In this document: in pieces, positions 2,768 to 58,199 of the stretch
Position numbering within the stretch: the stretch's first letter is position 1
Layout of the letters: each line of letters starts with the position of its first letter
From: Acidimicrobiales bacterium
GTDB taxonomy: Bacteria > Actinomycetota > Acidimicrobiia > Acidimicrobiales > JBBRKR01
Assembly: GCA_038231795.1 (NCBI GenBank)
Contig: JBBRKR010000004.1
Span: 68,651-132,650, forward strand
Direction: 5' to 3'
DNA length: 64,000 bases
Program-made: the position numbers and the translations under genes
Notes under the pieces: generated by a model
What the model was told of the DNA's origin: nothing
The model's database searches: none
Seen by the model: only the letters and a program-made list of their open reading frames with translations

Positions 2768-4648
2768 ATGACGGACGTAGTTATTGGCCATGACGACGGC
2801 GTAACGCCCGAGGAATTGCACCGCGTGGTTTTACGATTTGCCGGGGACTCCGGCGATGGCATGCAACTCACTGGCGATCGGTTCACCAGTGTGAGTGCCT
2901 CCTTCGGCAACGACCTTTCGACGCTGCCCGATTTCCCCGCCGAGATCCGGGCCCCAGCCGGCACCGTCAACGGCGTGTCGAGCTTCCAAGTTCACATCAG
3001 CGATCACGACATCACCACACCTGGCGACGCCCCCAGCGTGTTGGTTGCTATGAACCCCGCCGCCTTGAAGGCCGACCTTCACCGCCTTGAGCCGGGTGGC
3101 ACGCTCATCGTGAACAGTGACAATTTCGAGCCCCGCGATCTATTGAAAGCTGAGTACACGTCGCACCCGCTTGAGGACGGTTCGCTCGATAGTTACAACC
3201 TCATCAAGGTGCCCATGACGATGCTCACTAAAGAGGCCACGCTGCCTCTTGGCATCAAAATGCGTGACGCAGAGCGCAGCAAAAACTTCTTTGCCCTTGG
3301 TCTCATTTCGTGGTTGTACACCAGACCCATCGACGGCACGTTGAAGTGGATCGATGATCGCTTCGCCAAAAACGAAATGGTGCGCAACTCCAACCGCGCC
3401 GCCTTTATGGCGGGGCACGCCTTCGGCGAGACCACCGACGCTTTCCCTCGCCCATACATTGTGCGCCCTGCCAAATTGCCGGCTGGCGAGTACACGAACG
3501 TCAGCGGCAACACCGCACTGGCGTGGGGTCTCATTGCTGCCGGGCAATTGGCGAAGCTTCCCATCATGCTCGGCTCATACCCAATCACACCGGCCAGCGA
3601 CATCTTGCACGAGTTGAGTAAGCACAAGAATTTTGGCGTGCGTACTTTTCAGGCCGAGGACGAAATTGCCGCCATTGGTTCTGCCCTTGGCGCCGCGTTT
3701 GCTGGCCATCTGGGCATCACCTCGACCTCTGGTCCTGGCGTTGCTCTCAAGAGCGAAACCATGTCGTTGGCCATCAGCTTGGAGCTTCCGCTCATCATTG
3801 TGGACATCCAACGCGGTGGCCCGTCCACTGGCTTGCCCACCAAAACTGAGGCCGCCGATCTCAACATTGCTCTCTATGGTCGCCACGGAGAAGCACCCCT
3901 TCCCGTGGTGGCTGCCTACTCGCCGAGTCAATGCTTCCATGCTGCAATCGAGGCCGTCCGGATTGCAGTCAAATACCGCACGCCGGTCGTGCTGTTGAGT
4001 GATGGATATTTGGCCAACGGGTCAGAGCCATGGCTGCTGCCCGATGTGGATTCTTTACCCGATATCAGCGTGCCGTTCGCCACCGAAATGAACCACACGC
4101 TCGACGACGGCACAGAGGTTTTCTTTCCCTACAAGCGCGATCCCGAAACGCTCGCACGACCGTGGGCCATTCCCGGCACACCAAAACTCATGCATCGTGT
4201 TGGCGGCATCGAGAAAGAGGACGGATCGGGAAATATCAGCTACACGCCCGACAATCACGACAAAATGGTGCGCCTTCGGGCCGCAAAAATTGCCGGAATC
4301 GCCAACGACATCCCGCCCGCAGAGGTCGTCGGAGACGCCGATGCCACATTGTGCGTGGTCTCGTGGGGCTCCACATGGGGCGCAGTTGGAGAGGCAGCCA
4401 AGCGAGTGCGCGCTGATGGTCACAAACTGGCGTGGATCCACCTCACTCACCTGAGCCCGCTCGCTCCCAACTTGGGCGAGTTGCTGGCAAAGTATCCGAA
4501 AATTCTGGTGCCGGAAATGAACCTCGGCCAGCTATGTCGCTTGCTGCGAGCCGAATTTTTGGTGCCCGCTCAATCGCTCAGCAAAGTGCAGGGCACGCCA
4601 TTTACCGCACGCGAATTGCAAACCGCCATCATGAAAGAGCTGTCATGA
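2768..4648 (+). CDS. korA: 2-oxoacid:ferredoxin oxidoreductase, alpha subunit (KorA-type)
   Basis: 626-aa ORF with LRFAGDSGDGMQLTG, GSYPITPASDILHELS and IVDIQRGGPSTGLPTK, followed by the beta subunit with an ATGA overlap. Confidence 0.9.
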   Translation: MTDVVIGHDDGVTPEELHRVVLRFAGDSGDGMQLTGDRFTSVSASFGNDLSTLPDFPAEIRAPAGTVNGVSSFQVHISDHDITTPGDAPSVLVAMNPAALKADLHRLEPGGTLIVNSDNFEPRDLLKAEYTSHPLEDGSLDSYNLIKVPMTMLTKEATLPLGIKMRDAERSKNFFALGLISWLYTRPIDGTLKWIDDRFAKNEMVRNSNRAAFMAGHAFGETTDAFPRPYIVRPAKLPAGEYTNVSGNTALAWGLIAAGQLAKLPIMLGSYPITPASDILHELSKHKNFGVRTFQAEDEIAAIGSALGAAFAGHLGITSTSGPGVALKSETMSLAISLELPLIIVDIQRGGPSTGLPTKTEAADLNIALYGRHGEAPLPVVAAYSPSQCFHAAIEAVRIAVKYRTPVVLLSDGYLANGSEPWLLPDVDSLPDISVPFATEMNHTLDDGTEVFFPYKRDPETLARPWAIPGTPKLMHRVGGIEKEDGSGNISYTPDNHDKMVRLRAAKIAGIANDIPPAEVVGDADATLCVVSWGSTWGAVGEAAKRVRADGHKLAWIHLTHLSPLAPNLGELLAKYPKILVPEMNLGQLCRLLRAEFLVPAQSLSKVQGTPFTARELQTAIMKELS

Positions 4649-16668: not shown

Positions 16669-17502
16669 TTAGCCGTGCGGGCGTGATCTTTCGACGACGT
16701 CCATCCCCATCGAAGCGTGCCACGCAAACATGGCCCGGCTCACCCTGAGCCGATCCAAACGTTGCCCCCACTCGCTCCCCGCAATCATCGACTCGCCGCT
16801 TAGCGGTGCCTCTACGGTCACGCTGAATTGATCTGGCAGTGGTGCAGCCCTACGAGCAATTTCGACAAGACCTTCAAGGTCGCGTTCCCACGAATGCACG
16901 TTGACGCCATCTGCCGTGCGGCCAGCTACCGCCGCCATTCGAGGACCGTTGGCACCGACAATGATTTGCGGCACACGACATGGATTGGCCAGGCCGACGG
17001 GCTGGCGAAATGTGGCTGTTGACGATTCGTATGCGGTGTCGCCACCCCACAACGCTTTGAGATAACCAACAGTGTCGGCCATCTGTTGACGACGTTGTGC
17101 CGCGCTGCTCGTGGCCACACCAAGCATGGTGAGTTCAAGCGAGTACGGGGATTCTGGCCCCGCGCCGGCACCCAAACCGAGGAGGAATCGCCCGTCGCTC
17201 AAGTTGGCCAATGTGGTCGATGCCGTTGCAATATGGGCTCCTAGACGAGTCGCTGCGTTAATCACCAACGGGCCAAATTCGACACGTGACGTCGACATGG
17301 CAATCATGGTGAGAGCGCTCCACACATCGAGCGATGAATGGCCACCAAGCACAGAGCCTGACAAATGGTCGTAGGTCCAAACGCCATCGAAACCGACCTC
17401 CTCAGCGAGGCCGACAGCATCAATAAATTGCTGCGGCGACAGATCAACTGGATTGATGACAATATCGATTTTCACTCCCAGATTCTCCACGATTCGCTGC
17501 AC
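16669..17502 (-). CDS. LLM-class (luciferase-like) F420-dependent oxidoreductase
   Basis: 277-aa ORF with FDGVWTYDHLSG and LGLGAGAGPES, typical of the LLM class. Confidence 0.8.
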   Translation of the reverse strand: MQRIVENLGVKIDIVINPVDLSPQQFIDAVGLAEEVGFDGVWTYDHLSGSVLGGHSSLDVWSALTMIAMSTSRVEFGPLVINAATRLGAHIATASTTLANLSDGRFLLGLGAGAGPESPYSLELTMLGVATSSAAQRRQQMADTVGYLKALWGGDTAYESSTATFRQPVGLANPCRVPQIIVGANGPRMAAVAGRTADGVNVHSWERDLEGLVEIARRAAPLPDQFSVTVEAPLSGESMIAGSEWGQRLDRLRVSRAMFAWHASMGMDVVERSRPHG

Positions 17503-17567
17503 ATGTTCGCGACTCTCGTACGGTCGCCGTCGCCAAAATATCGTTATGCAGCATTCGCGGAAGTGAC

Positions 17568-17705
17568 TTGCACACGTACCACCGGCACGGATTTTCCACG
17601 GATGCTCGCTACACCGTTGGCCATGAAGCGGTCGGAGAAGTCGTCGAGATCGGCAGTTCGGTATGCAAATTCAAGATCGGCGATCGAGTACTCGTCGCCG
17701 GCTCG
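17568..17705 (+). pseudogene. remnant of a zinc-type alcohol dehydrogenase (GroES-like ADH_N fragment only)
   Basis: Plus-frame translation HTYHRHGFSTDARYTVGHEAVGEVVEIGSSVCKFKIGDRVLVAG matches the ADH signature GHE-x2-G-x5-G-x2-V...GDRV. No upstream or downstream ADH sequence follows. Confidence 0.5.
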
Positions 17706-17855
17706 AAGCGAGCCCGGCTCGATCCGATCCATCGGCAGATAGCCACGCGTAAACGCCATTCAGCCAATCGTGGCCATTACCGGCGATCTCTCACGTCTTG
17801 TCGTAGATGCGGGCTGCTACGGTGTGGTGATCGTGTGATCGAGTGGAGGACGAAC

Positions 17856-18173
17856 ATGGGAGAGAAGGGGCTTGCGGACGCTGCTAGTTCCATGGTGCCC
17901 ACCGCATCGCCGGGCGTGGCCCAACAGGCGGCATCTTTTGTGGCGCGCGGCGCCGCGGATTTCGGCACCGACGTCGCCACGGCCGTCAAGACCGTTGCGG
18001 TAGTGGCTGTGGCCGAGAAAGTGGTGACTACGTCGCGCGGACGTATGCATGGTGACGGCACCGCCGACGACGACGCCGAGACTACGGCTGACGGCGCCGG
18101 CGATGTCGGCTCTGGCGCGGAGACCACCCCGCCAACTGCGCACAACTCGACCAATGGTGAGCCCCAAGCCTGA
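17856..18173 (+). CDS. small acidic Ala/Thr/Gly-rich hypothetical protein (106 aa)
   Basis: ATG preceded by GGAGGA 5 nt upstream. G/C-rich third codon positions. Its stop TGA lies 1 nt before the GTG of the next gene. No family recognised. Confidence 0.4.
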   Translation: MGEKGLADAASSMVPTASPGVAQQAASFVARGAADFGTDVATAVKTVAVVAVAEKVVTTSRGRMHGDGTADDDAETTADGAGDVGSGAETTPPTAHNSTNGEPQA

Positions 18174-18174
18174 C

Positions 18175-19317
18175 GTGCTTCGTTCGGCCCGATCAGCTCG
18201 ATCCCGCCGGTCGCCACGCGATCGGCGGCTCGGCGTAGAGCACGAGTACCGGCTGCTGCGCGGCTCCGAGGTGGTTGACGCCCGGCAGCTCATCCCGACG
18301 CTGCCGCTCGATGGCTCTCTGCTCGATCCGGGGGATCCACTTGCCGTGCGGGGAGAATGGGGTGGCGTCATCACCGCCGACGGCATGGAAGCGGAGATCG
18401 TGACGCCGCCATGCCGTCTCGGCGTCGATAGCCTTCGTCGAGTGGTCGACGCGGCGGCGACTGGCCATGCCGTGCTGACCTCGGCGCTACCTGCCGACGT
18501 CTGCCTGCAGGGCTACTCGACGCATTTGAACGTCGAGGTGACCGACAAGGCCTGCCGGTCGACCGCACTGCTCGTCGCGCGACGGTTCGCACCTGCACTG
18601 ATGCTATTCGATCGTCAGGATTCGCCGGGGCTGTTAATCCGACCGCGGCACCGGCGCCTTGAGCTTGGATACGACCACATTGATGGCGAGGCGCTTCATG
18701 CCGCGCTGGTGCTGGCGATCGGGGCGGCCGCAATGTGCGAACGCGCTGCCCGGTCGCGCGCGGCGCGCAGGGTGCTTCCGCCCGAGCTCCGGCTGCACGT
18801 GGTGCCGTCGCCGCAGCGCTACGGCTGGTACGTCGACCGCCGCGCCGGTGGCCAGGACCTGTACGAGTGCGGTCGCGCCACTGTCTTCCAAACGATATCG
18901 GGCTCCAGCATTACTGCCCAGGAGTTACTTGAGGAGGTGTGGACGTGCGCTCGCGCCGCATTGGACGCACTACTGCCGCACGCGGACGTTGCTCTCGTTG
19001 ACGAGATGGTGGAGGGCCGACACCCGTTGCGATCTGAGGTCACTACGGTCGAGCCCTACGTGGTCGCCGCCAACCCACGGGTAGAGTATGCCCCGTCGGT
19101 TCTGGCCCGCCGTGATCGAGGGGAGGTAGTGCTCACGACAGTCGCCGCCACCTGGCACGCATTGGTGCTCCGTGCCGAACGGGGCGCCGACGTGCGCTGG
19201 ATCCGCGTGCCCGGCGAGCACGTCGACGACTTCCTGCGTTCGGTCGACTCGGGTCATATCGATGCATGGCTGGCGGGGCAGTTCGGGCGCACGATCATGC
19301 GTGGGGGAATGGCGTGA
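18175..19317 (+). CDS. glutamine-synthetase-like carboxylate-amine ligase superfamily protein (GCS2/amidoligase/Pup-ligase-like), divergent
   Basis: N-terminal LGVEHEYRLL resembles the G-[IV]-E-x-E nucleotide/metal motif of YbdK/GCS2, amidoligase_2 and PafA/Dop. Later GYSTHLNVEV resembles the His motif of the same fold. Start uncertain (GTG 18175, ATG 18154 or 18049). Confidence 0.5.
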   Translation: MLRSARSARSRRSPRDRRLGVEHEYRLLRGSEVVDARQLIPTLPLDGSLLDPGDPLAVRGEWGGVITADGMEAEIVTPPCRLGVDSLRRVVDAAATGHAVLTSALPADVCLQGYSTHLNVEVTDKACRSTALLVARRFAPALMLFDRQDSPGLLIRPRHRRLELGYDHIDGEALHAALVLAIGAAAMCERAARSRAARRVLPPELRLHVVPSPQRYGWYVDRRAGGQDLYECGRATVFQTISGSSITAQELLEEVWTCARAALDALLPHADVALVDEMVEGRHPLRSEVTTVEPYVVAANPRVEYAPSVLARRDRGEVVLTTVAATWHALVLRAERGADVRWIRVPGEHVDDFLRSVDSGHIDAWLAGQFGRTIMRGGMA

Positions 19318-20042
19318 GCCGGGCAACTCCTTTTGACGCGGTGGTCAGCACGGCGCCGCCGCGCCGACGCGACGTGCTGGCACCGGAACGCGACGTCAGT
19401 CGCGGGCGCTACGGGGGCGAGCGAGGCCGCGATGCGAAGCGCACGCACCACGACGACCGTCGCCGGCTGCGTCGCTTCCGCCCCTGGCACGCTGTCGCCG
19501 GTTTAGCCGTCGTCGCGGTGGGTACGGCTGGGGTGGTCGTTGCCAGCTCGCGTGGCAGCTCGAGCGCGGTCGTCACCACCAGCAGCGCACCGCCGACGAC
19601 CGTGACCCCGACCACCACCATGAGCCCCGAGAGCCAGCTGGCCAAGTCGCTCGCTGCCACCTATCACGCAGTCCAGACGTTCACCGATGGCAACTCCAAC
19701 TTCCCGGTCGGGACAGTCAGAAACTTCGACATCATTTTCACGACGGCCTGTGTCGACACCGTCTGCACCATGCGCTCCAAAGGGTTGTACGACGTCGGCG
19801 CAGTGATCTCAGGTGAGCAAGTGACCATCGATGCCACTCCGACCGAGCCGTGCCCGGTGGCCTCTGGCGTGACGGGCCAAATCACCGACATCTTCCACAT
19901 GGTGTTGCGAGTCACGCATACGCAGAACGGCACCCCGGACCAGTTGACCGGCATTATCGCCGTGTCGTCGCCGGATGCCGCGAAGTGCAACACGACGAAC
20001 GATCCAGTCGCCTCGTCGATCGTCCTCACACGGGTTGCGTGA
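19314..20042 (+). CDS. membrane-anchored hypothetical protein (Arg-rich cytoplasmic N-terminus, one TM, Thr/Ser linker, Cys-containing ectodomain)
   Basis: GTG 19314 overlaps the ligase stop (GTGA). TM segment WHAVAGLAVVAVGTAGVVVA, then SSAPPTTVTPTTT and a roughly 140-aa domain with 4 Cys. No family recognised. Confidence 0.5.
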   Translation: MSRATPFDAVVSTAPPRRRDVLAPERDVSRGRYGGERGRDAKRTHHDDRRRLRRFRPWHAVAGLAVVAVGTAGVVVASSRGSSSAVVTTSSAPPTTVTPTTTMSPESQLAKSLAATYHAVQTFTDGNSNFPVGTVRNFDIIFTTACVDTVCTMRSKGLYDVGAVISGEQVTIDATPTEPCPVASGVTGQITDIFHMVLRVTHTQNGTPDQLTGIIAVSSPDAAKCNTTNDPVASSIVLTRVA

Positions 20043-20262
20043 CGTCCGCGCATTCGGGCAGTCCTCCCGTCGGCGACACTACGACCGCTCGCCGGTAGGC
20101 ACCCAGGCGCGCAATCGAGTCAGCCAGCGCAACCCCCAATGGCCATTAGCGGATTCGGTCGTTTGGACCGTCGACGCGCTGTTTGTTCAGTCACAAGCGA
20201 ACCATTGCACGACATAGGTGGGTCAATGTGAAGCTCGGCTCATCATCGGCGCCTAGCCATGC

Positions 20263-21096
20263 TCAGTCGAACTGGTCGAACCACGCGGTGTCAAGAACTG
20301 TCTTTGTGCGCAAGCCCAAACCCTTTGCCTCGACGAGCTCCCATATTCGTTGCCCGTCAATCAGGTTCACGTGTGGCGTGGTGTCCGTCGCTGCCTTGCG
20401 TGCCGCTTGCGAAAACGATCCGAGTGTCACAAAGACCGCCCGCTCGGCTCCCTTTGACGCGGCGTCCCGCTGGAACAGGGCGACGTCCCTGCGCTCAATG
20501 TTCGAACGCGACCCCTCCAGGTTGTATCGCTTGATTTGTACGGCGACCCTGTCGGCAAGTATTTCGCTGACGAGAGCGAGCCCGATCGCATCAACGCCCT
20601 CATCAGCTGGGCCACCAGTGCGGACGAGTTCCATTCCGTAGCTCTTCAAGAGATACACGACGAAGTCCTCGAAACCCCGGGGTGTGAGCGCGTGCAGGCG
20701 GGCGAGCGGTCTGGTCGATCATCACCGCTGTTGGCTTCTGTCGAGCGCGAGCCCTACGGACGCGGCGGTCATCTCGTCGACTGCGTCGCGTGCCTCCGCG
20801 TCGGGCAGGGAGAGCACGCGCTTGCCGTCGGCGGACAGGACGTAAAGGCCACGCTGCGGCGTCTCGACGAGCCCTCCGAGCTTGTTGTACGAGCGCGCCC
20901 AAGCCATACGATCGAGCAAGATCGAGTCGCCCGGCCGGTTTGGATACTCGACGGAGACGGCGACGTCATCGAACGCCATGTTCTCCACAATCCAGGCGGT
21001 GATCTCCCTGGCATGAGCGGTTCCACCAAACGCCTGCACGGCTCGGAGGGCTGGAAGAAGAAAGTCCTTGTACGGCGGCAGGTCTGAAGGCTCCAC
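20263..21096 (-). pseudogene. mrr: Mrr-type restriction endonuclease interrupted by tandem in-frame stops
   Basis: N-terminal ORF (20722..21096) is an Mrr_N winged helix (PYKDFLLPALRAVQAFGGTAHAREITAWIVE). The same frame continues after TGATGA (20719-20724) as LTPRGFEDFVVYLLKSYGMELVRTGGPADEGVDAIG...RAVFVTLGSF, the Mrr catalytic core. Confidence 0.75.
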
Positions 21097-21377: not shown

Positions 21378-23195
21378 CTATTCTTCTGAGAACCGTCTGG
21401 ACTTGGTGGCCTTACCCCGAATTGTGGCGCTCTTGAGCGCATCGAGAACCGTGTCGACAGCACCTGACGGCACGCCGACAACGGAGAACCGATCCGAAAT
21501 GCTGATGGGGCCAATCTGGCGTCCTGACAGGTTGGATTCGTTGGCGATCGCCCCCACAAGGTCATTGGGACGGATGCCGTCTTTGCGGCCCAGCGCAATA
21601 TAAATGCGCGCCACATCGCCATCGTTTTCGTGGCGCGGGCGTGCGGCTCCATCGCGTGGGCCACGATCCGAAAACTCGCGTGGCTTTCGATCTTCACTAC
21701 CGCCGGAGCGACCCCGATCTTCACTTCCACCGGAGCGACCCCGGTCGTCGCTATTCCCTGAACGACCCCGGTCGTCATACGACTTGCCCTTTGGCCCCTT
21801 GCGATCGGAGTACATCGTGGGGTCGGGGATCTCGCGCTCGTCGACTGTGGCACCGGTGGCCAAATGCGCCAGTTTGATAGCAGCCAACGCGATATCGGCC
21901 ATGTCGTGCTCGCCCGTCAACGCATCGAGCACGCCCGAGTAATCACCAAGGTCGTCGGCGGCCAGCGCCTCCTTGATGGTCCCAATAGTGATTTCGATTT
22001 GCCGCTTACGAAGGTCGGCAACCGTCGGCACTTTCTCCACGGAGATCTTCTGCTTCGTGAGGCGCTCGATGTTGCCAAGCAGCCGTTGCTCGCGGGGCTC
22101 CGCCAACGTGATGGCAACACCCAAACGACCAGCGCGTCCAACGCGACCAATGCGATGCACATACGACTCAGGAGCAGACGGCACGTCGTAGTTGACCACG
22201 TGACTTAGCTGCTCTATATCGAGACCGCGAGCAGCCACATCGGTGGCCACCAACAGGTCGGTGACGCCGTTGCGCAAGCGAGTCATCACCTTGTCACGCA
22301 TCTCTTGGGTCATGCCACCGTGCAACGATTCAGCTCGGTAACCGCGGCCGTTCATTGTCTCGGTGAGCTCGTCGACCTCTGTGCGGGTACGGCAAAACAC
22401 GATTGCAGCCACGGGTGATTCAACATCCAGAATGCGGCCCAACGCAGCGGGCTTGTGTGAGCGCTGCACGATATACACGCTCTGCCTGACCAGTTGTTTG
22501 CCCGGCTTCGAATCACCCAAACCAATTTGAATTTTTAGCGGGTCATTGAGGTGGCGTTTGGCAATAGAGTTGATGCGTGGCGGCATGGTGGCCGAAAACA
22601 GCACGGTCTGGCGTTCGCTTGGCGTGGCTTTGAGGATTGCTTCAATGTCGTCGGCGAAGCCCATGTCGAGCATTTCGTCGGCTTCGTCGAGCACCACAAT
22701 TTCGATGTCATCGAGGGGCAACGTGTTGCGAGCAATATGGTCGAGCGCCCGGCCGGGTGTAGCCACCACGATGTGAACGCCGGCCGCCAGTTCCTTAAGT
22801 TGACGAAAAATCGGCTGGCCACCGTAGATCGGCAGCACCTTGGCGCCGAGGTCGCGACCGTATTTGTAAATTGCTTCCGACACCTGCATCGCCAGCTCAC
22901 GAGTAGGTACGAGCACCAACGCCATTGGCACCGCTGGCTTAGCGGATTTACCAGTCGAGCGCTGCAAACGCTGCAAGATCGGCAATGCAAATGCAGCAGT
23001 TTTGCCAGTGCCCGTGGCCGCTTGCCCGATCAGATCGCGCCCGTCGATCATGAGCGGAATCGTCTCGCGCTGGATCGGAGTCGGTTCTTCGTAGCCAAGC
23101 GTGTGCAATGCACTCAAAAGTTCTTTGCGGAGACCAAGATCCTCAAACGTGGTGAGGACTTCGGGTTCATCGGTTATTTCGCGAGGGGGATTCAC
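21378..23195 (-). CDS. DEAD-box ATP-dependent RNA helicase with C-terminal DbpA-like RNA-binding domain
   Basis: 605-aa ORF with the Q motif, AQTGTGKT-like GQAATGTGKTAAF, VLDEADEML (DEAD), SAT, HRIGRVGRAG, and a C-terminal ARIYIALGRKDGIRPNDLVGAI domain. Confidence 0.9.
   Translation of the reverse strand: MNPPREITDEPEVLTTFEDLGLRKELLSALHTLGYEEPTPIQRETIPLMIDGRDLIGQAATGTGKTAAFALPILQRLQRSTGKSAKPAVPMALVLVPTRELAMQVSEAIYKYGRDLGAKVLPIYGGQPIFRQLKELAAGVHIVVATPGRALDHIARNTLPLDDIEIVVLDEADEMLDMGFADDIEAILKATPSERQTVLFSATMPPRINSIAKRHLNDPLKIQIGLGDSKPGKQLVRQSVYIVQRSHKPAALGRILDVESPVAAIVFCRTRTEVDELTETMNGRGYRAESLHGGMTQEMRDKVMTRLRNGVTDLLVATDVAARGLDIEQLSHVVNYDVPSAPESYVHRIGRVGRAGRLGVAITLAEPREQRLLGNIERLTKQKISVEKVPTVADLRKRQIEITIGTIKEALAADDLGDYSGVLDALTGEHDMADIALAAIKLAHLATGATVDEREIPDPTMYSDRKGPKGKSYDDRGRSGNSDDRGRSGGSEDRGRSGGSEDRKPREFSDRGPRDGAARPRHENDGDVARIYIALGRKDGIRPNDLVGAIANESNLSGRQIGPISISDRFSVVGVPSGAVDTVLDALKSATIRGKATKSRRFSEE
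21688..21775 (-). repeat. 27-nt tandem repeat (about 3 units) inside the helicase linker, encoding DDRGRSGNS/DDRGRSGGS/EDRGRSGGS
   Basis: Plus strand cgatcttcactaccgccggagcgacccc / gatcttcacttccaccggagcgacccc / ggtcgtcgctattccctgaacgacccc. The protein reads SYDDRGRSGNSDDRGRSGGSEDRGRSGGSEDRKPRE. Confidence 0.85.
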
Positions 23196-57518: not shown

Positions 57519-58199
57519 ATGAGCGAAATCGATCACGCCGCGATACACCGAGGTGTACGTGTCCGCATCACAGCTCTCGTGTGCGAGCTTTCGGAGGAGA
57601 TGCTTGATTTCGTTGCGCCCGCAACCCCGGAGTGGCGGGTTCGCGATGTTGTGGCCCACCTCGCGGGTGGCGCGGCTGACGTTGTATCCGGCAACCTCGC
57701 CGATGTGGCGAGCGATTCCTGGACCGGCGCTCAGGTAGATGCCCGGAGGAACCTGACGGTCGGCGAGGTACTCGATGAGTGGGCACGTTGCAGTGCGATC
57801 GTCGAGCCGCTCATCGCGACGTTCGACCCGCTTCTGCGCGCCATGCTGCTGACAGACGCGGTTACGCACGAGCATGATCTGCGCGGTGCGCTCGGGGTTG
57901 CAGGTGAGCGCGAATCCGATGCGATTGCGTACGCATTCCGCGGTGTTTCCGGTGGTATCGGAGCGCAACGCGGCGATACAGGCGCGCTGCGCATCCTGCA
58001 CGAGGCTGGCGAGTCGGTCGTCGGAACCGGCGCACCGACGGCCACGGTGCACACGACGCGTTTCGAGATCGTTCGGGCGAGCGTCGGTCGCCGCTCCTAC
58101 GAGCAGATCAAGGCGTGGGATTGGGAGGGCAATAGTCAACCAGAAACCGTGGTGCTCGCACGGTTCGCTCCCGCGCGGCTCACCCCGCTCGAGGAGTAG
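57519..58199 (+). CDS. maleylpyruvate isomerase family mycothiol-dependent enzyme (DinB/MDMPI fold)
   Basis: Start at ATG 57519. EWRVRDVVAHLAGG and DAVTHEHDLRGALG are typical of the TIGR03083-type family. Confidence 0.7.
   Translation: MSEIDHAAIHRGVRVRITALVCELSEEMLDFVAPATPEWRVRDVVAHLAGGAADVVSGNLADVASDSWTGAQVDARRNLTVGEVLDEWARCSAIVEPLIATFDPLLRAMLLTDAVTHEHDLRGALGVAGERESDAIAYAFRGVSGGIGAQRGDTGALRILHEAGESVVGTGAPTATVHTTRFEIVRASVGRRSYEQIKAWDWEGNSQPETVVLARFAPARLTPLEE

Follow-up and report, generated by a model that had tools for sequence, protein, structure and literature searches.

The cassette occupies positions 17856..20042 of the window (the whole 64,000-nucleotide stretch of DNA that was analysed) and, as read from the sequence, consists of three closely packed genes on the + strand. 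Gene 1 (17856..18173) starts with an ATG at 17856 and ends with a TGA at 18171-18173; its product of 105 amino acids, ending ...NSTNGEPQA, is identical to that in the NCBI annotation of the source assembly. A Shine-Dalgarno-like GGAGGA (17845..17850, + strand) lies 5 nt 5' of the ATG, and nearly all gene 1 homologues have a GGAGG-type purine run ahead of the start. Gene 2 (18175..19317; 380 residues) starts with a GTG at 18175, 1 nt past the stop of gene 1, and gene 3 (19314..20042; 242 residues) with a GTG at 19314 that overlaps the stop of gene 2 (GTGA). NCBI chose alternative starts for both, ATG 18154 for gene 2 (387 residues, P0001; 20-nt overlap with gene 1) and ATG 19266 for gene 3 (258 residues). 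The features listed in the earlier note (three-gene cassette, GGAGGA, GTG and GTGA junctions, two motifs in gene 2, ectodomain with four Cys) are all present in the sequence.

The cassette is a GC-rich island (0.64-0.68, compared with 0.55-0.60 in the flanks), a characteristic that the earlier note missed. It is located between a truncated ADH gene on one side and a split Mrr restriction gene on the other. No mobile-element genes flank the cassette in the window, a scan of 17300-20400 gave neither a sigma-70-like promoter nor an intrinsic terminator, and Mpa/ARC, pup and proteasome genes are absent from the 64-kb window.

Gene 2 contains the sequences LGVEHEYRLL (residues 19-28) and GYSTHLNVEV (113-122), from which a glutamine synthetase (GS)-like ligase fold, shared with YbdK/GCS2, the amidoligases and PafA/Dop, had tentatively been proposed, without close resemblance to any of these families. 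The lack of resemblance holds. Gene 2 has no match in Pfam or NCBIfam at E≤10, PF04107, PF12224 and PF03136 included, and a phmmer search of PDB sequences gave nothing relevant. A profile hmmsearch built from 58 relatives retrieved no PafA or Dop chain from the PDB sequences at E≤10. A match to a beta-1,3-glucanase (E 0.21) in these PDB searches was regarded as chance. With hhalign, the gene 2 family (profiles of 58 and of 205 sequences) was compared with a small PafA/Dop alignment, rebuilt from PDB alignments and from an M. tuberculosis PafA sequence (validated by its match to 4b0t at E 7.6e-155). The probability of 0.6-0.7% was not significant, and the low-stringency alignment was collinear at three motifs.

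There are 65 close homologues of gene 2, and the distant ones amount to at least 1000 representatives at 50% identity. They belong to Actinomycetota and Chloroflexota, with several paralogues in some single genomes, and carriers in culture include Nakamurella endophytica, Blastococcus, Knoellia and Oryzobacter. We found no description of the cassette or of the gene 2 family in the literature on the motif, on PafA/Dop-like families and on amidoligases. As judged from these searches, gene 2 is a member of a large, undescribed and unannotated enzyme family.

Support for the fold came from structure instead of profiles. The AlphaFold (AF2) model of gene 2 has a pLDDT of 93.4 and a pTM of 0.91, and Foldseek against the PDB identified Dop (5lrt; E 1.8e-8, TM 0.57) as the best match, followed by PafA-Pup (4bjr; E 2.2e-8). 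The Dop and PafA matches range from E 2e-8 to 1e-6 with a probability of 1.00 (top 9 at E≤1e-6), after which come γ-glutamylmethylamide synthetase (GmaS), glutamine synthetases and plant GCL (E 1e-4 to 1e-2, TM 0.3-0.4). All of the top 25 matches are Dop, PafA, GmaS, GS or GCL, and the GCL-type enzymes in the top 50 are plant GCL 2gwc (E 3e-3) and the bifunctional 3ln6 (E 1.5e-2). The model thereby supports a GS-type carboxylate-amine ligase fold, with its cradle of curved antiparallel sheet and backing helices, nearest to PafA/Dop, and bears out the original assignment.

The presumed metal, ATP and catalytic positions of gene 2 are kept in 201-208 of 208 relatives (counts are over up to 208 diverse relatives sharing at most ~50% identity), and all conserved motif positions sit on strands of the central sheet in the AF2 model. 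The first core strand (model strand 18-29) carries G20-V-E22-H-E24 (18232..18246, + strand), which conforms to the GhExE signature of the superfamily on core strand 1 (Iyer et al., 2008, PMC2588565); G is found in 202/202, E22 in 201/202 and E24 in 202/202 aligned members, and this region presumably provides Mg/ATP ligands. A beta-hairpin (65-69/72-76) contains T67-A-D69-G-M-E72-A-E74-I-V-T-P78-P79 (18373..18411, + strand), where D69 (207/208) is the presumed catalytic Asp and E74 (208/208) the presumed metal-binding Glu; E72 is kept in 193/208. The D(+5)E(+4)P spacing equals that of Dop D94...E99...P103, and by motif and by the non-significant collinear hhalign alignment the hairpin would correspond to that of Dop.

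On core strand 4, the stretch G113-Y-S-T-H117-L-N119 (18511..18531, + strand) corresponds to GCH155ENY of Dop and, at its His, to the [HD]x[NH]-type motif defined for this strand (PMC2588565). S115 is present in 208/208 and H117 in 207/208 relatives; the second motif position, 119, conforms only in part, with Asn in 83 (the window protein included) and Ser in 125. The last two core strands (152-158 and 161-167) hold S150-P-G-L-L-I-R156-P-R158-H-R-R161-L-E163-L-G (18622..18669, + strand), which we compared with RRLH241VIIGD of Dop. R156 is conserved in 206/208 relatives, and R158, R161 and E163 in 208/208 each; the Arg cluster presumably binds phosphate, with E163 as a metal ligand. Judged by their spacing, the motifs together line up with the Mg ligands (E8, E10, E99, H155 and H241) and the catalytic D94 of Dop.

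We infer, in the absence of activity data, that gene 2 encodes an active enzyme. Activity has never been shown and no sequence-profile link to active enzymes exists, which would suit a membrane receptor in which gene 2 is a scaffold domain without catalytic activity. However, the expected metal, phosphate and substrate positions are kept in nearly every relative, the opposite of a pseudoenzyme pattern, and we find a dead domain hardly credible.

Beyond the catalytic core, the C-terminal part of the model forms a small alpha/beta domain (residues ~310-372; 19102..19290, + strand) with four strands and two helices. The same domain is N-terminal in the Oryzobacter/Knoellia subfamily (P0031 16-84 versus gene 2 310-376, E 5e-5). 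The Foldseek alignments with Dop span ~500 columns, and no residue-level equivalence of the C-terminal domain was shown.

The PafA/Dop enzymes that act with Pup in Actinobacteria (PF03136, PF05639) are the best structural neighbours of gene 2, and share with it GhExE, the D...E...P spacing, the strand-4 His and the Arg cluster; both also have a small extra domain at the C-terminal end, though not one shown to be equivalent. In contrast, there is no detectable sequence-profile similarity, and the last metal ligand is a Glu (E163) in gene 2, as in GS and GCL, but His241 in Dop. GS, GmaS and GCL (PF04107, PF12224) have the fold, the active-site signature and the Glu on the last core strand in common with gene 2, although the structural matches are weaker and profile matches are lacking. 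Unlike the gene 2 family, these enzymes are soluble, use free amino acids as substrates and have no small-protein partner. The other new GS-like families described by Iyer et al. lack Pup-like ORFs (PMC2588565).

Gene 3 encodes an Arg-rich tail, one hydrophobic helix, a Ser/Thr/Pro linker and, after the linker, an extracytoplasmic domain (19626..20039, + strand) with exactly four Cys. The transmembrane helix, W58..S79 (19485..19550, + strand), was located from the sequence and a hydropathy scan. Because an Arg-rich stretch precedes it, the positive-inside rule would place the N-terminus inside and the C-terminus outside. Against Pfam, NCBIfam and PADLOC, gene 3 gave only weak, sub-threshold matches driven by the TM helix. 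Most relatives of gene 2 encode a single chain of cytoplasmic enzyme, linker, one TM helix and a variable Ig-like ectodomain (TIG, He_PIG, fn3 and Flg_new_2 occur at this position). Residues 90-240 of gene 3 match the C-terminal part of one such fused protein (P0047; E 2e-15), with the four Cys kept. On the strength of this homology, gene 3 is the split-off linker, TM helix and ectodomain of a chain that is single in most relatives.

Two linear motifs recur in the cytoplasmic tail. L22-A-P-E-R-D-V-S-R-G-R32 (19377..19409, + strand; family consensus LLxPERDPxTGR) is found both in the linker of fused relatives and, where the chain is split, in the N-terminal tail of the gene 3 homologue. R39-D-A-K42-R (19428..19442, + strand) contains the only lysine of the tail, in an R-x-x-K motif that reads mostly R-P-G-K in the family and is sometimes repeated. 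Among linker lysines, 121/180 have Arg at -3. At least one Lys is present in the 70 residues before the TM helix in 101/103 fused proteins (exactly one in 47), and family-wide there are 0.33 Lys per 100 residues in the enzyme part versus 2.16 in the linker; gene 2 itself, with 380 residues, contains 47 Arg and a single Lys. However, the positive-inside rule alone could account for the Arg-rich tail and its lysine.

Membrane-anchored Pup ligases have been described in Plesiocystis and Rhodopirellula (Iyer, Burroughs and Aravind, 2008, PMC2588565). They resemble the present family in that a PafA-type ligase is located at the cytoplasmic membrane face, and in that its link is with a membrane-protein gene, not with the proteasome. 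Yet they are true PafA-family enzymes with canonical Pup, to which gene 1 is unrelated, and their anchor is a four-helix insertion in the catalytic domain. In the present family the anchor is either one C-terminal helix or the separate gene 3, and an ectodomain comes after it.

The PknB-like receptor Ser/Thr kinases of Actinobacteria combine an N-terminal cytoplasmic enzyme, an Arg-rich juxtamembrane linker, one TM helix and a variable ectodomain, and occur as paralogues. The gene 2 family has this topology and the several paralogues per genome in common with them. This is an analogy only: the catalytic domain and chemistry are unrelated, and sensing by genes 2 and 3 has not been shown.

The product of gene 1 is rich in Ala, Gly, Asp and Thr and free of Cys. 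Its GC content by codon position (0.71/0.60/0.72) resembles that of gene 2, and 176 homologous database proteins, none of them annotated, were identified. Because of this codon-position pattern and because homologues exist, many beside gene 2 homologues, the comparison indicates that gene 1 is a genuine gene and not a chance ORF. Proteins of the family are 51-155 residues long (A 17%, G 14%, D 9%, T 9%) without Cys or Tyr, and are predicted, from composition only, to be intrinsically disordered. Gene 1 has no Pfam profile match, Pup (PF05639) included, and none in NCBIfam.

The sole invariant stretch of the family is the N-terminal M-G-E-K-G-(N/L/I), encoded in the window by 17856..17873 (+ strand; M-G-E-K-G-L), with E-K-G as the invariant core. 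Of the homologues listed, 115/120 start with MGEKGN. Six-frame translations of 82 gene 2 loci contain xGEKG[NLIVM] 56 times, always heading the small ORFs of the family, 55 of which begin with ATG, GTG or TTG (the exception, in L050, has GAG); the reversed motif occurs 0 times in the same translations. Since the synonymous codons of the motif vary freely among homologues, conservation acts at the protein level, and the idea of an RNA or translation signal was set aside. The last residue varies among the 120 homologues (S, G, A, R, T, P and others), and the window protein ends in GEPQA without GG[QE]. The conserved end is the N-terminus, not the acidic C-terminus. The arrangement of an enzyme gene beside a small, disordered, acidic protein with one sharply conserved terminus is that of the Pup system, but the terminus is the N-terminal MGEKG in gene 1 and the C-terminal GGQ/GGE in Pup.

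Several reactions at this terminus were set aside. Two variants start with MEKGN and lack Gly2, while E, K and G5 are kept, which speaks against the Gly2 alpha-amine as the reacting group. Deamidation of Asn6, as performed by Dop on Pup, was dismissed because several clades, and the window protein too, have Leu or Ile at this position. A lasso-like head-to-side-chain ring would need an acidic residue at a consistent place, and there is none.

A conserved N-terminus followed by a variable remainder would also suit a ribosomal peptide natural product, in which gene 1 is a precursor with an N-terminal recognition leader and gene 2 makes an amide cross-link. Amide-forming ligases mature other peptide classes, such as the graspetides. 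Yet the disorder, the lack of Cys and Tyr, the range of lengths and the absence of a repeated core pattern in gene 1 do not fit a precursor, no protease or exporter is conserved nearby, and a head-to-side-chain ring is made unlikely by the MEKGN variants and by Ilumatobacteraceae variants without an acidic residue near the N-terminus. We consider such a product very improbable.

Genes 1 and 3 do co-occur with gene 2 homologues elsewhere, gene 3 being fused in most of them. A gene 1 homologue is located within 4 kb of a gene 2 relative in 58/82 loci, and the order gene 1-gene 2-gene 3 is also found in an Acidimicrobiia MAG (L001) and in Nakamurella endophytica (L082). The translational coupling of gene 1 to gene 2 proposed for the cassette is not universal; the two genes are co-directional, divergent or convergent depending on the locus. 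Genomes with two gene 2 paralogues encode two distinct gene 1 proteins, and several enzyme/partner pairs can occur in one genome. Conversely, gene 1 was not found within 4 kb in ~30% of the 82 loci, among them those of the closest relative of gene 2 (L002/L003/L006, 62% identity), and one locus has gene 1 and a gene 3-like protein without gene 2 within 5 kb. No natural fusion of genes 1 and 2 was found among 207 relatives. The best reading is that gene 1 is a dedicated small partner of the gene 2 enzyme, its disorder being inferred from composition.

The loci with no gene 1 nearby leave room for a membrane-anchored small-molecule ligase, of the gamma-glutamyl-amine or glutamate-cysteine type or similar, in which gene 1 stays outside the active site as an adaptor, chaperone or inhibitor. 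Most families of the superfamily make small molecules (PMC2588565), and GS, GmaS and GCL are among the structural matches. However, an invariant six-residue N-terminus on an otherwise freely drifting protein speaks for direct chemical or active-site recognition, metabolic enzymes do not usually carry variable Ig-like ectodomains, and biosynthetic neighbours are not conserved. A small-molecule ligase therefore seems rather improbable. Across the 82 loci there are no conserved neighbour families beyond genes 1 and 3, and specifically none for small-molecule biosynthesis or use, proteases, exporters, the proteasome or known defence. The Pup system, in contrast, is linked to Mpa/ARC/proteasome genes; the gene 2 family further differs from it in being membrane-tethered with a variable ectodomain, in having several enzyme/partner pairs per genome and in including Chloroflexota.

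A further alternative is a surface-sensing conflict or defence module, in which the ectodomain senses contact with a phage or competitor, the ligase responds, and the module was acquired horizontally in this genome. The position of the cassette as a GC island between truncated ADH and split Mrr restriction genes, the highly variable ectodomains and the several paralogues per genome would suit such a role. PADLOC is negative for genes 1 and 2, however, and with no conserved tie to known defence genes in the 82 loci and no mobile-element genes in the flanks we give this reading very little weight.

Drawing on the observed fold, catalytic-residue conservation, gene 2/gene 3 fusion, gene 1 association and motif, and lysine distribution, our best explanation, held tentatively and with slightly less than even confidence, is that the three genes specify a membrane ligase that joins the gene 1 N-terminus by an isopeptide bond. 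Genes 2 and 3 together would form a receptor-like membrane enzyme: gene 2 the cytoplasmic ATP- and Mg-dependent carboxylate-amine ligase domain, gene 3 the juxtamembrane tail, TM helix and outward-facing domain. We infer that the reactive end of gene 1 is the N-terminus, because no other part is invariant, because its conservation acts on the protein and because it stands at the head of the ORF in every case. The gene 2 enzyme would most likely recognise the Glu-Lys-Gly N-terminus and form the bond there.

In pupylation, PafA joins the disordered protein Pup to lysines after phosphorylating the Glu at the end of Pup (PMC8599861), and PafA is reported to pupylate itself at one lysine (PMC4783102). 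In the preferred version of our explanation, ATP would phosphorylate the Glu3 side-chain carboxylate of gene 1, and a lysine would then attack it, in the first place the only lysine in the juxtamembrane tail, that of R-x-x-K. Tagging would thus resemble that by Pup, except that the tag has the opposite polarity. Almost equal in likelihood is the converse version, in which an activated Glu of the PERD motif would be attacked by Lys4 of gene 1. To our knowledge, the known enzymes of the superfamily activate a glutamate whose alpha-carboxylate is free, and the internal position of Glu3 in gene 1 counts against the explanation. ATP use, the ligase versus hydrolase direction, the residues joined and signalling by the ectodomain are inferred, with no experiment and no model of a complex behind them; a single-sequence model of a gene 1 + gene 2 chimera (pLDDT 35) was uninformative on docking of the N-terminus.

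The chemistry could also be confined to gene 1. In this alternative, which is unlikely but deserves attention, gene 2 adds a small group to Glu3 or Lys4, or removes one, without protein conjugation (for example gamma-glutamylation, amidation or Dop-like amide hydrolysis), and gene 1 is a messenger or regulator, so that a sensor enzyme and its cognate small protein behave like a two-component system. Every gene 2 paralogue has its own distinct gene 1, as in cognate signalling pairs, and such separate partners are more easily understood as cognate substrates or regulators than as a general tag. The topology resembles that of receptor kinases with variable ectodomains, the best single structural match is the hydrolase Dop and not the ligase PafA, and the gamma-glutamyl-amine ligases (GmaS) rank third among the structural neighbours. 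What this alternative leaves unexplained is the lysine depletion of the enzyme and the R-x-x-K and PERD motifs of the tail; nor is a gene that makes or uses a small-molecule substrate conserved nearby.

Ligation of gene 1 remains our preferred explanation. A function in peptide or protein tagging, suggested in the earlier note, is still an inference, now strengthened by the N-terminal motif of gene 1 and the lysine pattern. Because a Pup-enzyme-like fold is combined with a membrane partner and a small disordered protein, the cassette may represent a second bacterial protein-tagging system. The fuller claim, that it is a second, independent prokaryotic conjugation system in which TM ligases attach gene 1 via its N-terminal Glu-Lys to the juxtamembrane lysine or other targets, with a polarity the reverse of that of Pup and ubiquitin, is rather unlikely as a whole.

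Apart from pupylation, we know of no case in which a GS-fold ligase uses a small disordered protein as a tag for proteins. Pupylation was called 'rather distinctive' in the 2008 survey in which the fold of PafA was defined (PMC2588565). In the cassette family, which has at least 1000 representatives (50% identity) from two mostly monoderm phyla, a PafA/Dop-like enzyme comes with a small disordered protein of its own. Cultured carriers exist and the gene 2 of the window encodes a soluble protein of 380 residues; the key experiments are therefore straightforward. The system may also offer a proximity-labelling tool that complements the PafA-based PUP-IT, with a tag reactive at its N-terminus. 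If proteins are ligated, Pup-like tagging would no longer be a one-off, and the family would provide a testable intermediate or sister system for the origin of pupylation from metabolic ligases. The transmembrane 'receptor ligase' would then be a new coupling of the cell surface to the cytoplasm, and, if the conjugation reading is true, extracellular events would be relayed inward by protein ligation and not by phosphorylation.

The cassette (window positions 17856 to 20042, forward strand) consists of three genes. Gene 1 runs from an ATG at 17856, with GGAGGA 5 nt upstream, to a TGA at 18173 and encodes a small protein of 105 residues, a call identical to that of the source-assembly annotation. 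Gene 2 possibly starts at a GTG at 18175, 1 nt past the gene 1 stop, and ends at 19317 (380 residues), and gene 3 possibly starts at a GTG at 19314, in a GTGA overlap with the gene 2 stop, and ends at 20042 (242 residues). The source-assembly annotation uses an in-frame upstream ATG at 18154 for gene 2 (387 residues) and an ATG at 19266 for gene 3 (258 residues). Whichever of the two sets of starts is taken, neighbouring genes touch or overlap. The earlier note had placed the same three ORFs, quoted the peptides LGVEHEYRLL and GYSTHLNVEV from gene 2, and described an Arg-rich N-terminus, a single TM helix, a Thr/Ser linker and four cysteines in gene 3; we found all of these in the sequence, the linker being rich in Ser, Thr and Pro.

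The gene 2 product has no match in Pfam or NCBIfam even at E ≤ 10, none in PADLOC, and no relevant match among PDB sequences with either the single sequence or a 58-sequence profile. A word-indexed search returned only 65 relatives, all ‘hypothetical’; an exhaustive profile search with the family raised this to at least 1000 representatives (clustered at 50% identity), and 592 have E ≤ 1e-30. We modelled the protein with AlphaFold2 on the family alignment (mean pLDDT 93.4, pTM 0.91) and compared the model with the PDB using Foldseek. It matches the depupylase Dop (5lrt, E 1.8e-8, TM 0.57; also 7oxy, 7oyh, 7oxv, 7oy3, 9cku and 4b0r) and the Pup ligase PafA (PafA-Pup entry 4bjr, E 2.2e-8). Lower matches are to gamma-glutamylmethylamide synthetase (GmaS), many glutamine synthetases (GS) and plant glutamate-cysteine ligase (GCL), with E from 1e-4 to 1e-2. 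The GS-like ligase fold that the earlier note had proposed is thus right, and, judging from this confident model, the nearest solved relatives are two pupylation enzymes, Dop and PafA. Profile-profile comparison of the family with a small PafA/Dop alignment was not significant (probability <1%), and gene 2 therefore represents a separate family in the superfamily, outside the PafA/Dop family PF03136. In a subfamily from Oryzobacter and Knoellia (P0022, P0031, P0034, P0037, P0038 and P0044, from loci L021, L027, L028, L038 and L079), the small C-terminal domain has moved to the N-terminus (residues 16-84 of P0031 match residues 310-376 of the window protein, E 5e-5), a domain relocation or circular permutation.

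The features described for the superfamily are a GhExE motif in strand 1, acidic residues in strands 2 and 3, [HD]x[NH] in strand 4 and catalytic residues in strand 6 (Iyer et al., PMC2588565). In Dop, E8, E10, Y92, E99, H155 and H241 are Mg ligands, D94 is catalytic, and R90 and R227 bind phosphate (Cui et al., PMC8599861). We counted the conservation of four gene 2 motifs over 208 divergent family members: G20-V-E22-H-E24 (E22 in 201/202, E24 in 202/202), T67-A-D69-G-M-E72-A-E74-I-V-T-P78 (D69 in 207/208, E74 in 208/208), S115-T-H117-L-N119 (S115 in 208/208, H117 in 207/208, position 119 N or S) and R156-P-R158-H-R-R161-L-E163 (R156 in 206/208; R158, R161 and E163 in 208/208). All four sit on central-sheet strands of the model. 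The spacing of the hairpin motif is exactly that of Dop D94-x4-E99-x3-P103, and in a permissive, non-significant hhalign alignment with PafA the GhExE motif, the D...E...P hairpin and the His motif are collinear. E163 stands at the place of Dop H241, where Glu is the ancestral state, as in GS and GCL. These correspondences were drawn by motif, without superposition. Such conservation speaks for a working enzyme, although the activity itself remains inferred.

Half of the gene 2 relatives are proteins of 590-1260 residues, and 103 of them have a hydrophobic helix after the enzyme domain, followed by varied Ig-like modules (TIG, He_PIG, fn3, Flg_new_2). The gene 3 ectodomain (residues 90-240) matches the C-terminal part of one such fused relative, P0047, with E 2e-15 and all four cysteines conserved. 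The cytoplasmic tail of gene 3 likewise mirrors the linker of the fused forms, with a ‘PGL(Y/F)D’-like stretch (TPFDAV in the window) followed by LLxPERDPxTGR (VLAPERDVSRGR in the window). Judged by these alignments, genes 2 and 3 encode the two pieces of a single protein. The Arg-rich stretch ahead of the helix implies that the N-terminus is inside and the C-terminus outside. The unit is therefore receptor-like, a membrane protein whose enzyme head lies in the cytoplasm.

The distribution of lysines along this unit is uneven. The window enzyme has 1 Lys against 47 Arg in its 380 residues, compared with a Lys content of 0.6-4.6% for the products of neighbouring genes. Per 100 residues, the 103 fused relatives have 0.33 lysines across the enzyme part and 2.16 over the 90 residues leading up to the helix; past the helix the figure is 1.13. 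The 180 linker lysines have Arg at -3 (121), Pro at -2 (57) and Gly at -1 (79), giving ‘R-P-G-K’, and 101 of the 103 proteins contain at least one lysine in the 70 residues ahead of the helix (exactly one in 47). Linkers of seven relatives (P0131, P0144, P0157, P0201, P0202, P0205 and P0207) repeat R-P-G-K or R-F-G-K two to four times, tandem-like. Split gene 3 tails carry the same RxxK motif, as RDAK (window and locus L002), RRDK (L001) and RSDK (Nakamurella endophytica), and K42 is the sole lysine of the window tail.

We searched the flanks of 82 loci of gene 2 relatives with gene 1 and its L001 homologue, and then iterated. The homologues fall into several classes with unalignable bodies, and their only invariant part is the N-terminal M-G-E-K-G, followed mostly by N, by L (window, L001) or by I (Ilumatobacteraceae). 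An ORF of 51-155 residues with such a start is present at 57 of the 82 loci, or 58 including an MGEKGD variant. In six-frame translations of the loci, all 56 occurrences of xGEKG[NLIVM] are ORF starts, 55 of them at ATG, GTG or TTG (GAG in L050), and the reversed motif does not occur. All four Gly and both Glu, Lys and Asn codons are used in the motif, so selection acts on the peptide. Run against 5.8 billion proteins, a profile of the family matched 176, all of them unannotated and 72-112 residues long; among the matches listed, 115 of 120 start with MGEKGN, and the other five, with the motif slightly inside, probably have a mis-called start. The family is rich in Ala, Gly, Asp and Thr, lacks Cys and Tyr, and has a variable C-terminal residue.

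The association of the three genes considered in the earlier note recurs in other genomes, with the window order also found in L001 and N. endophytica. Elsewhere gene 1 is divergent from gene 2 (L056, L059, L061, L062, L078), convergent and downstream of it (L021, L027, L028, L038, L046), or in a divergent operon with a gene 3-like gene (L064, L067, L070, L071, L077; around 2800-3860, reverse strand). A gene 1 class starting MGEKGN(I/V)TSEEL directly precedes a 257-residue gene 3-like membrane protein in these last five loci and in L083 (5001-6012), where no gene 2 was found within 5 kb. Several MAGs contain two gene 2 paralogues (L023/L042, L009/L062, L024/L030, L027/L049, L064/L070), each with its own gene 1 where one is visible; these gene 1 proteins, as in the first two pairs, differ in their bodies and share the N-terminus. 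About 30% of the 82 loci have no gene 1 within 4 kb. These include the closest relatives of the window's gene 2 (L002, L003 and L006, 62% identity), which keep genes 2 and 3 with the RDAK lysine and four cysteines, yet an MGEKG ORF is absent from the surrounding 4-5 kb or so. No other conserved gene family was found near the 82 loci. Counted over 76 loci, gene 2 relatives occur in Acidimicrobiia (about 24, including the closest match, from an Acidimicrobiaceae MAG), other Actinomycetota (about 32, including cultured Blastococcus, Knoellia and Oryzobacter), Chloroflexota (18; Limnocylindria, Dehalococcoidia, Anaerolineae, Chloroflexia, Thermoflexaceae), and one MAG each of Acidobacteriota and Myxococcales. 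The cultured N. endophytica was reached separately, via gene 1.

The cassette region (17600-20000) is a compositional island, with a GC content of 0.64-0.68 against 0.55-0.60 on either flank. Directly upstream of gene 1, and in the same stop-to-stop frame (17460-18170), lies a truncated N-terminus of a zinc-type alcohol dehydrogenase (ADH_N, PF08240, E 5e-12; 17529-17702, forward strand); no intact gene surrounds it, and the fragment has the look of a leftover gene piece bordering the island on its left. Just downstream, a Mrr-type restriction enzyme is spread over two reverse-strand ORFs (20263-20658, Mrr_cat, E 6e-19; 20722-21096, Mrr_N, E 7e-14) and is probably a disrupted gene. The island and the flanking remnants suggest horizontal acquisition of the cassette. 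A DEAD-box helicase further downstream (21378-23195, reverse strand) has near-perfect repeats in its C-terminal tail (DDRGRSGNSDDRGRSGGSEDRGRSGGSED); one also lies just downstream of the Blastococcus gene 2 homologue (L004), which may be coincidence. A 75-residue stop-to-stop frame (57908-58132, forward strand) ends in GGQ as Pup does, probably by chance; its Arg/Gly-rich sequence is unlike Pup.

The cassette combines a conserved PafA/Dop-like site, a dedicated gene 1 protein, disordered by its composition and invariant only in its terminal Glu-Lys-Gly, a lysine-stripped enzyme, and a tail with a conserved PERD glutamate and an RxxK lysine. The best explanation for this combination is that an isopeptide bond involving the gene 1 N-terminus is formed at the expense of ATP, with all chemistry inferred and none shown. 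In the scheme we favour, the side chain of gene 1 Glu3 would be activated and then attacked by the tail lysine or by other target lysines, which would be Pup chemistry with the tag polarity reversed. The converse, in which the PERD glutamate would be joined to gene 1 Lys4, is almost as plausible. The free Gly alpha-amine (MEKGN variants exist) and Asn6 (L and I variants exist) are disfavoured as reacting groups and not required; a head-to-side-chain ring in gene 1 is disfavoured, its acidic partner not being consistent. Some observations do not fit isopeptide formation. Glu3 is internal, whereas the Glu that known enzymes of the superfamily activate has its alpha-carboxylate free; the loci lacking a nearby gene 1, and L083 lacking a nearby gene 2, do not fit either. 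A structural model of the gene 1-gene 2 pair (pLDDT 35) carries no information on contact either way.

The cassette would work most like PafA/Dop with Pup, yet falls outside that family by membership tests. In contrast to that system, it has no PF03136-type profile match, no Pup and no proteasome linkage, its small protein is conserved at the opposite terminus, and its enzyme is tethered to the membrane via a C-terminal helix. Plesiocystis and Rhodopirellula have Pup ligases inserted in the membrane, which differ in being true PafA proteins with canonical Pup (PMC2588565). No description turned up in full-text literature searches on the motif, on families resembling PafA/Dop or Pup, and on GS-like amidoligases, and no library names gene 1 or gene 2. 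The variable ectodomain and the paralogous cognate pairs suggest, by analogy, that the cassette may have a sensing role. Its ligase belongs to a new GS-fold family, the small-protein partner is likewise new, and the architecture is receptor-like; that the cassette is a conjugation system in its own right is a genuine possibility.
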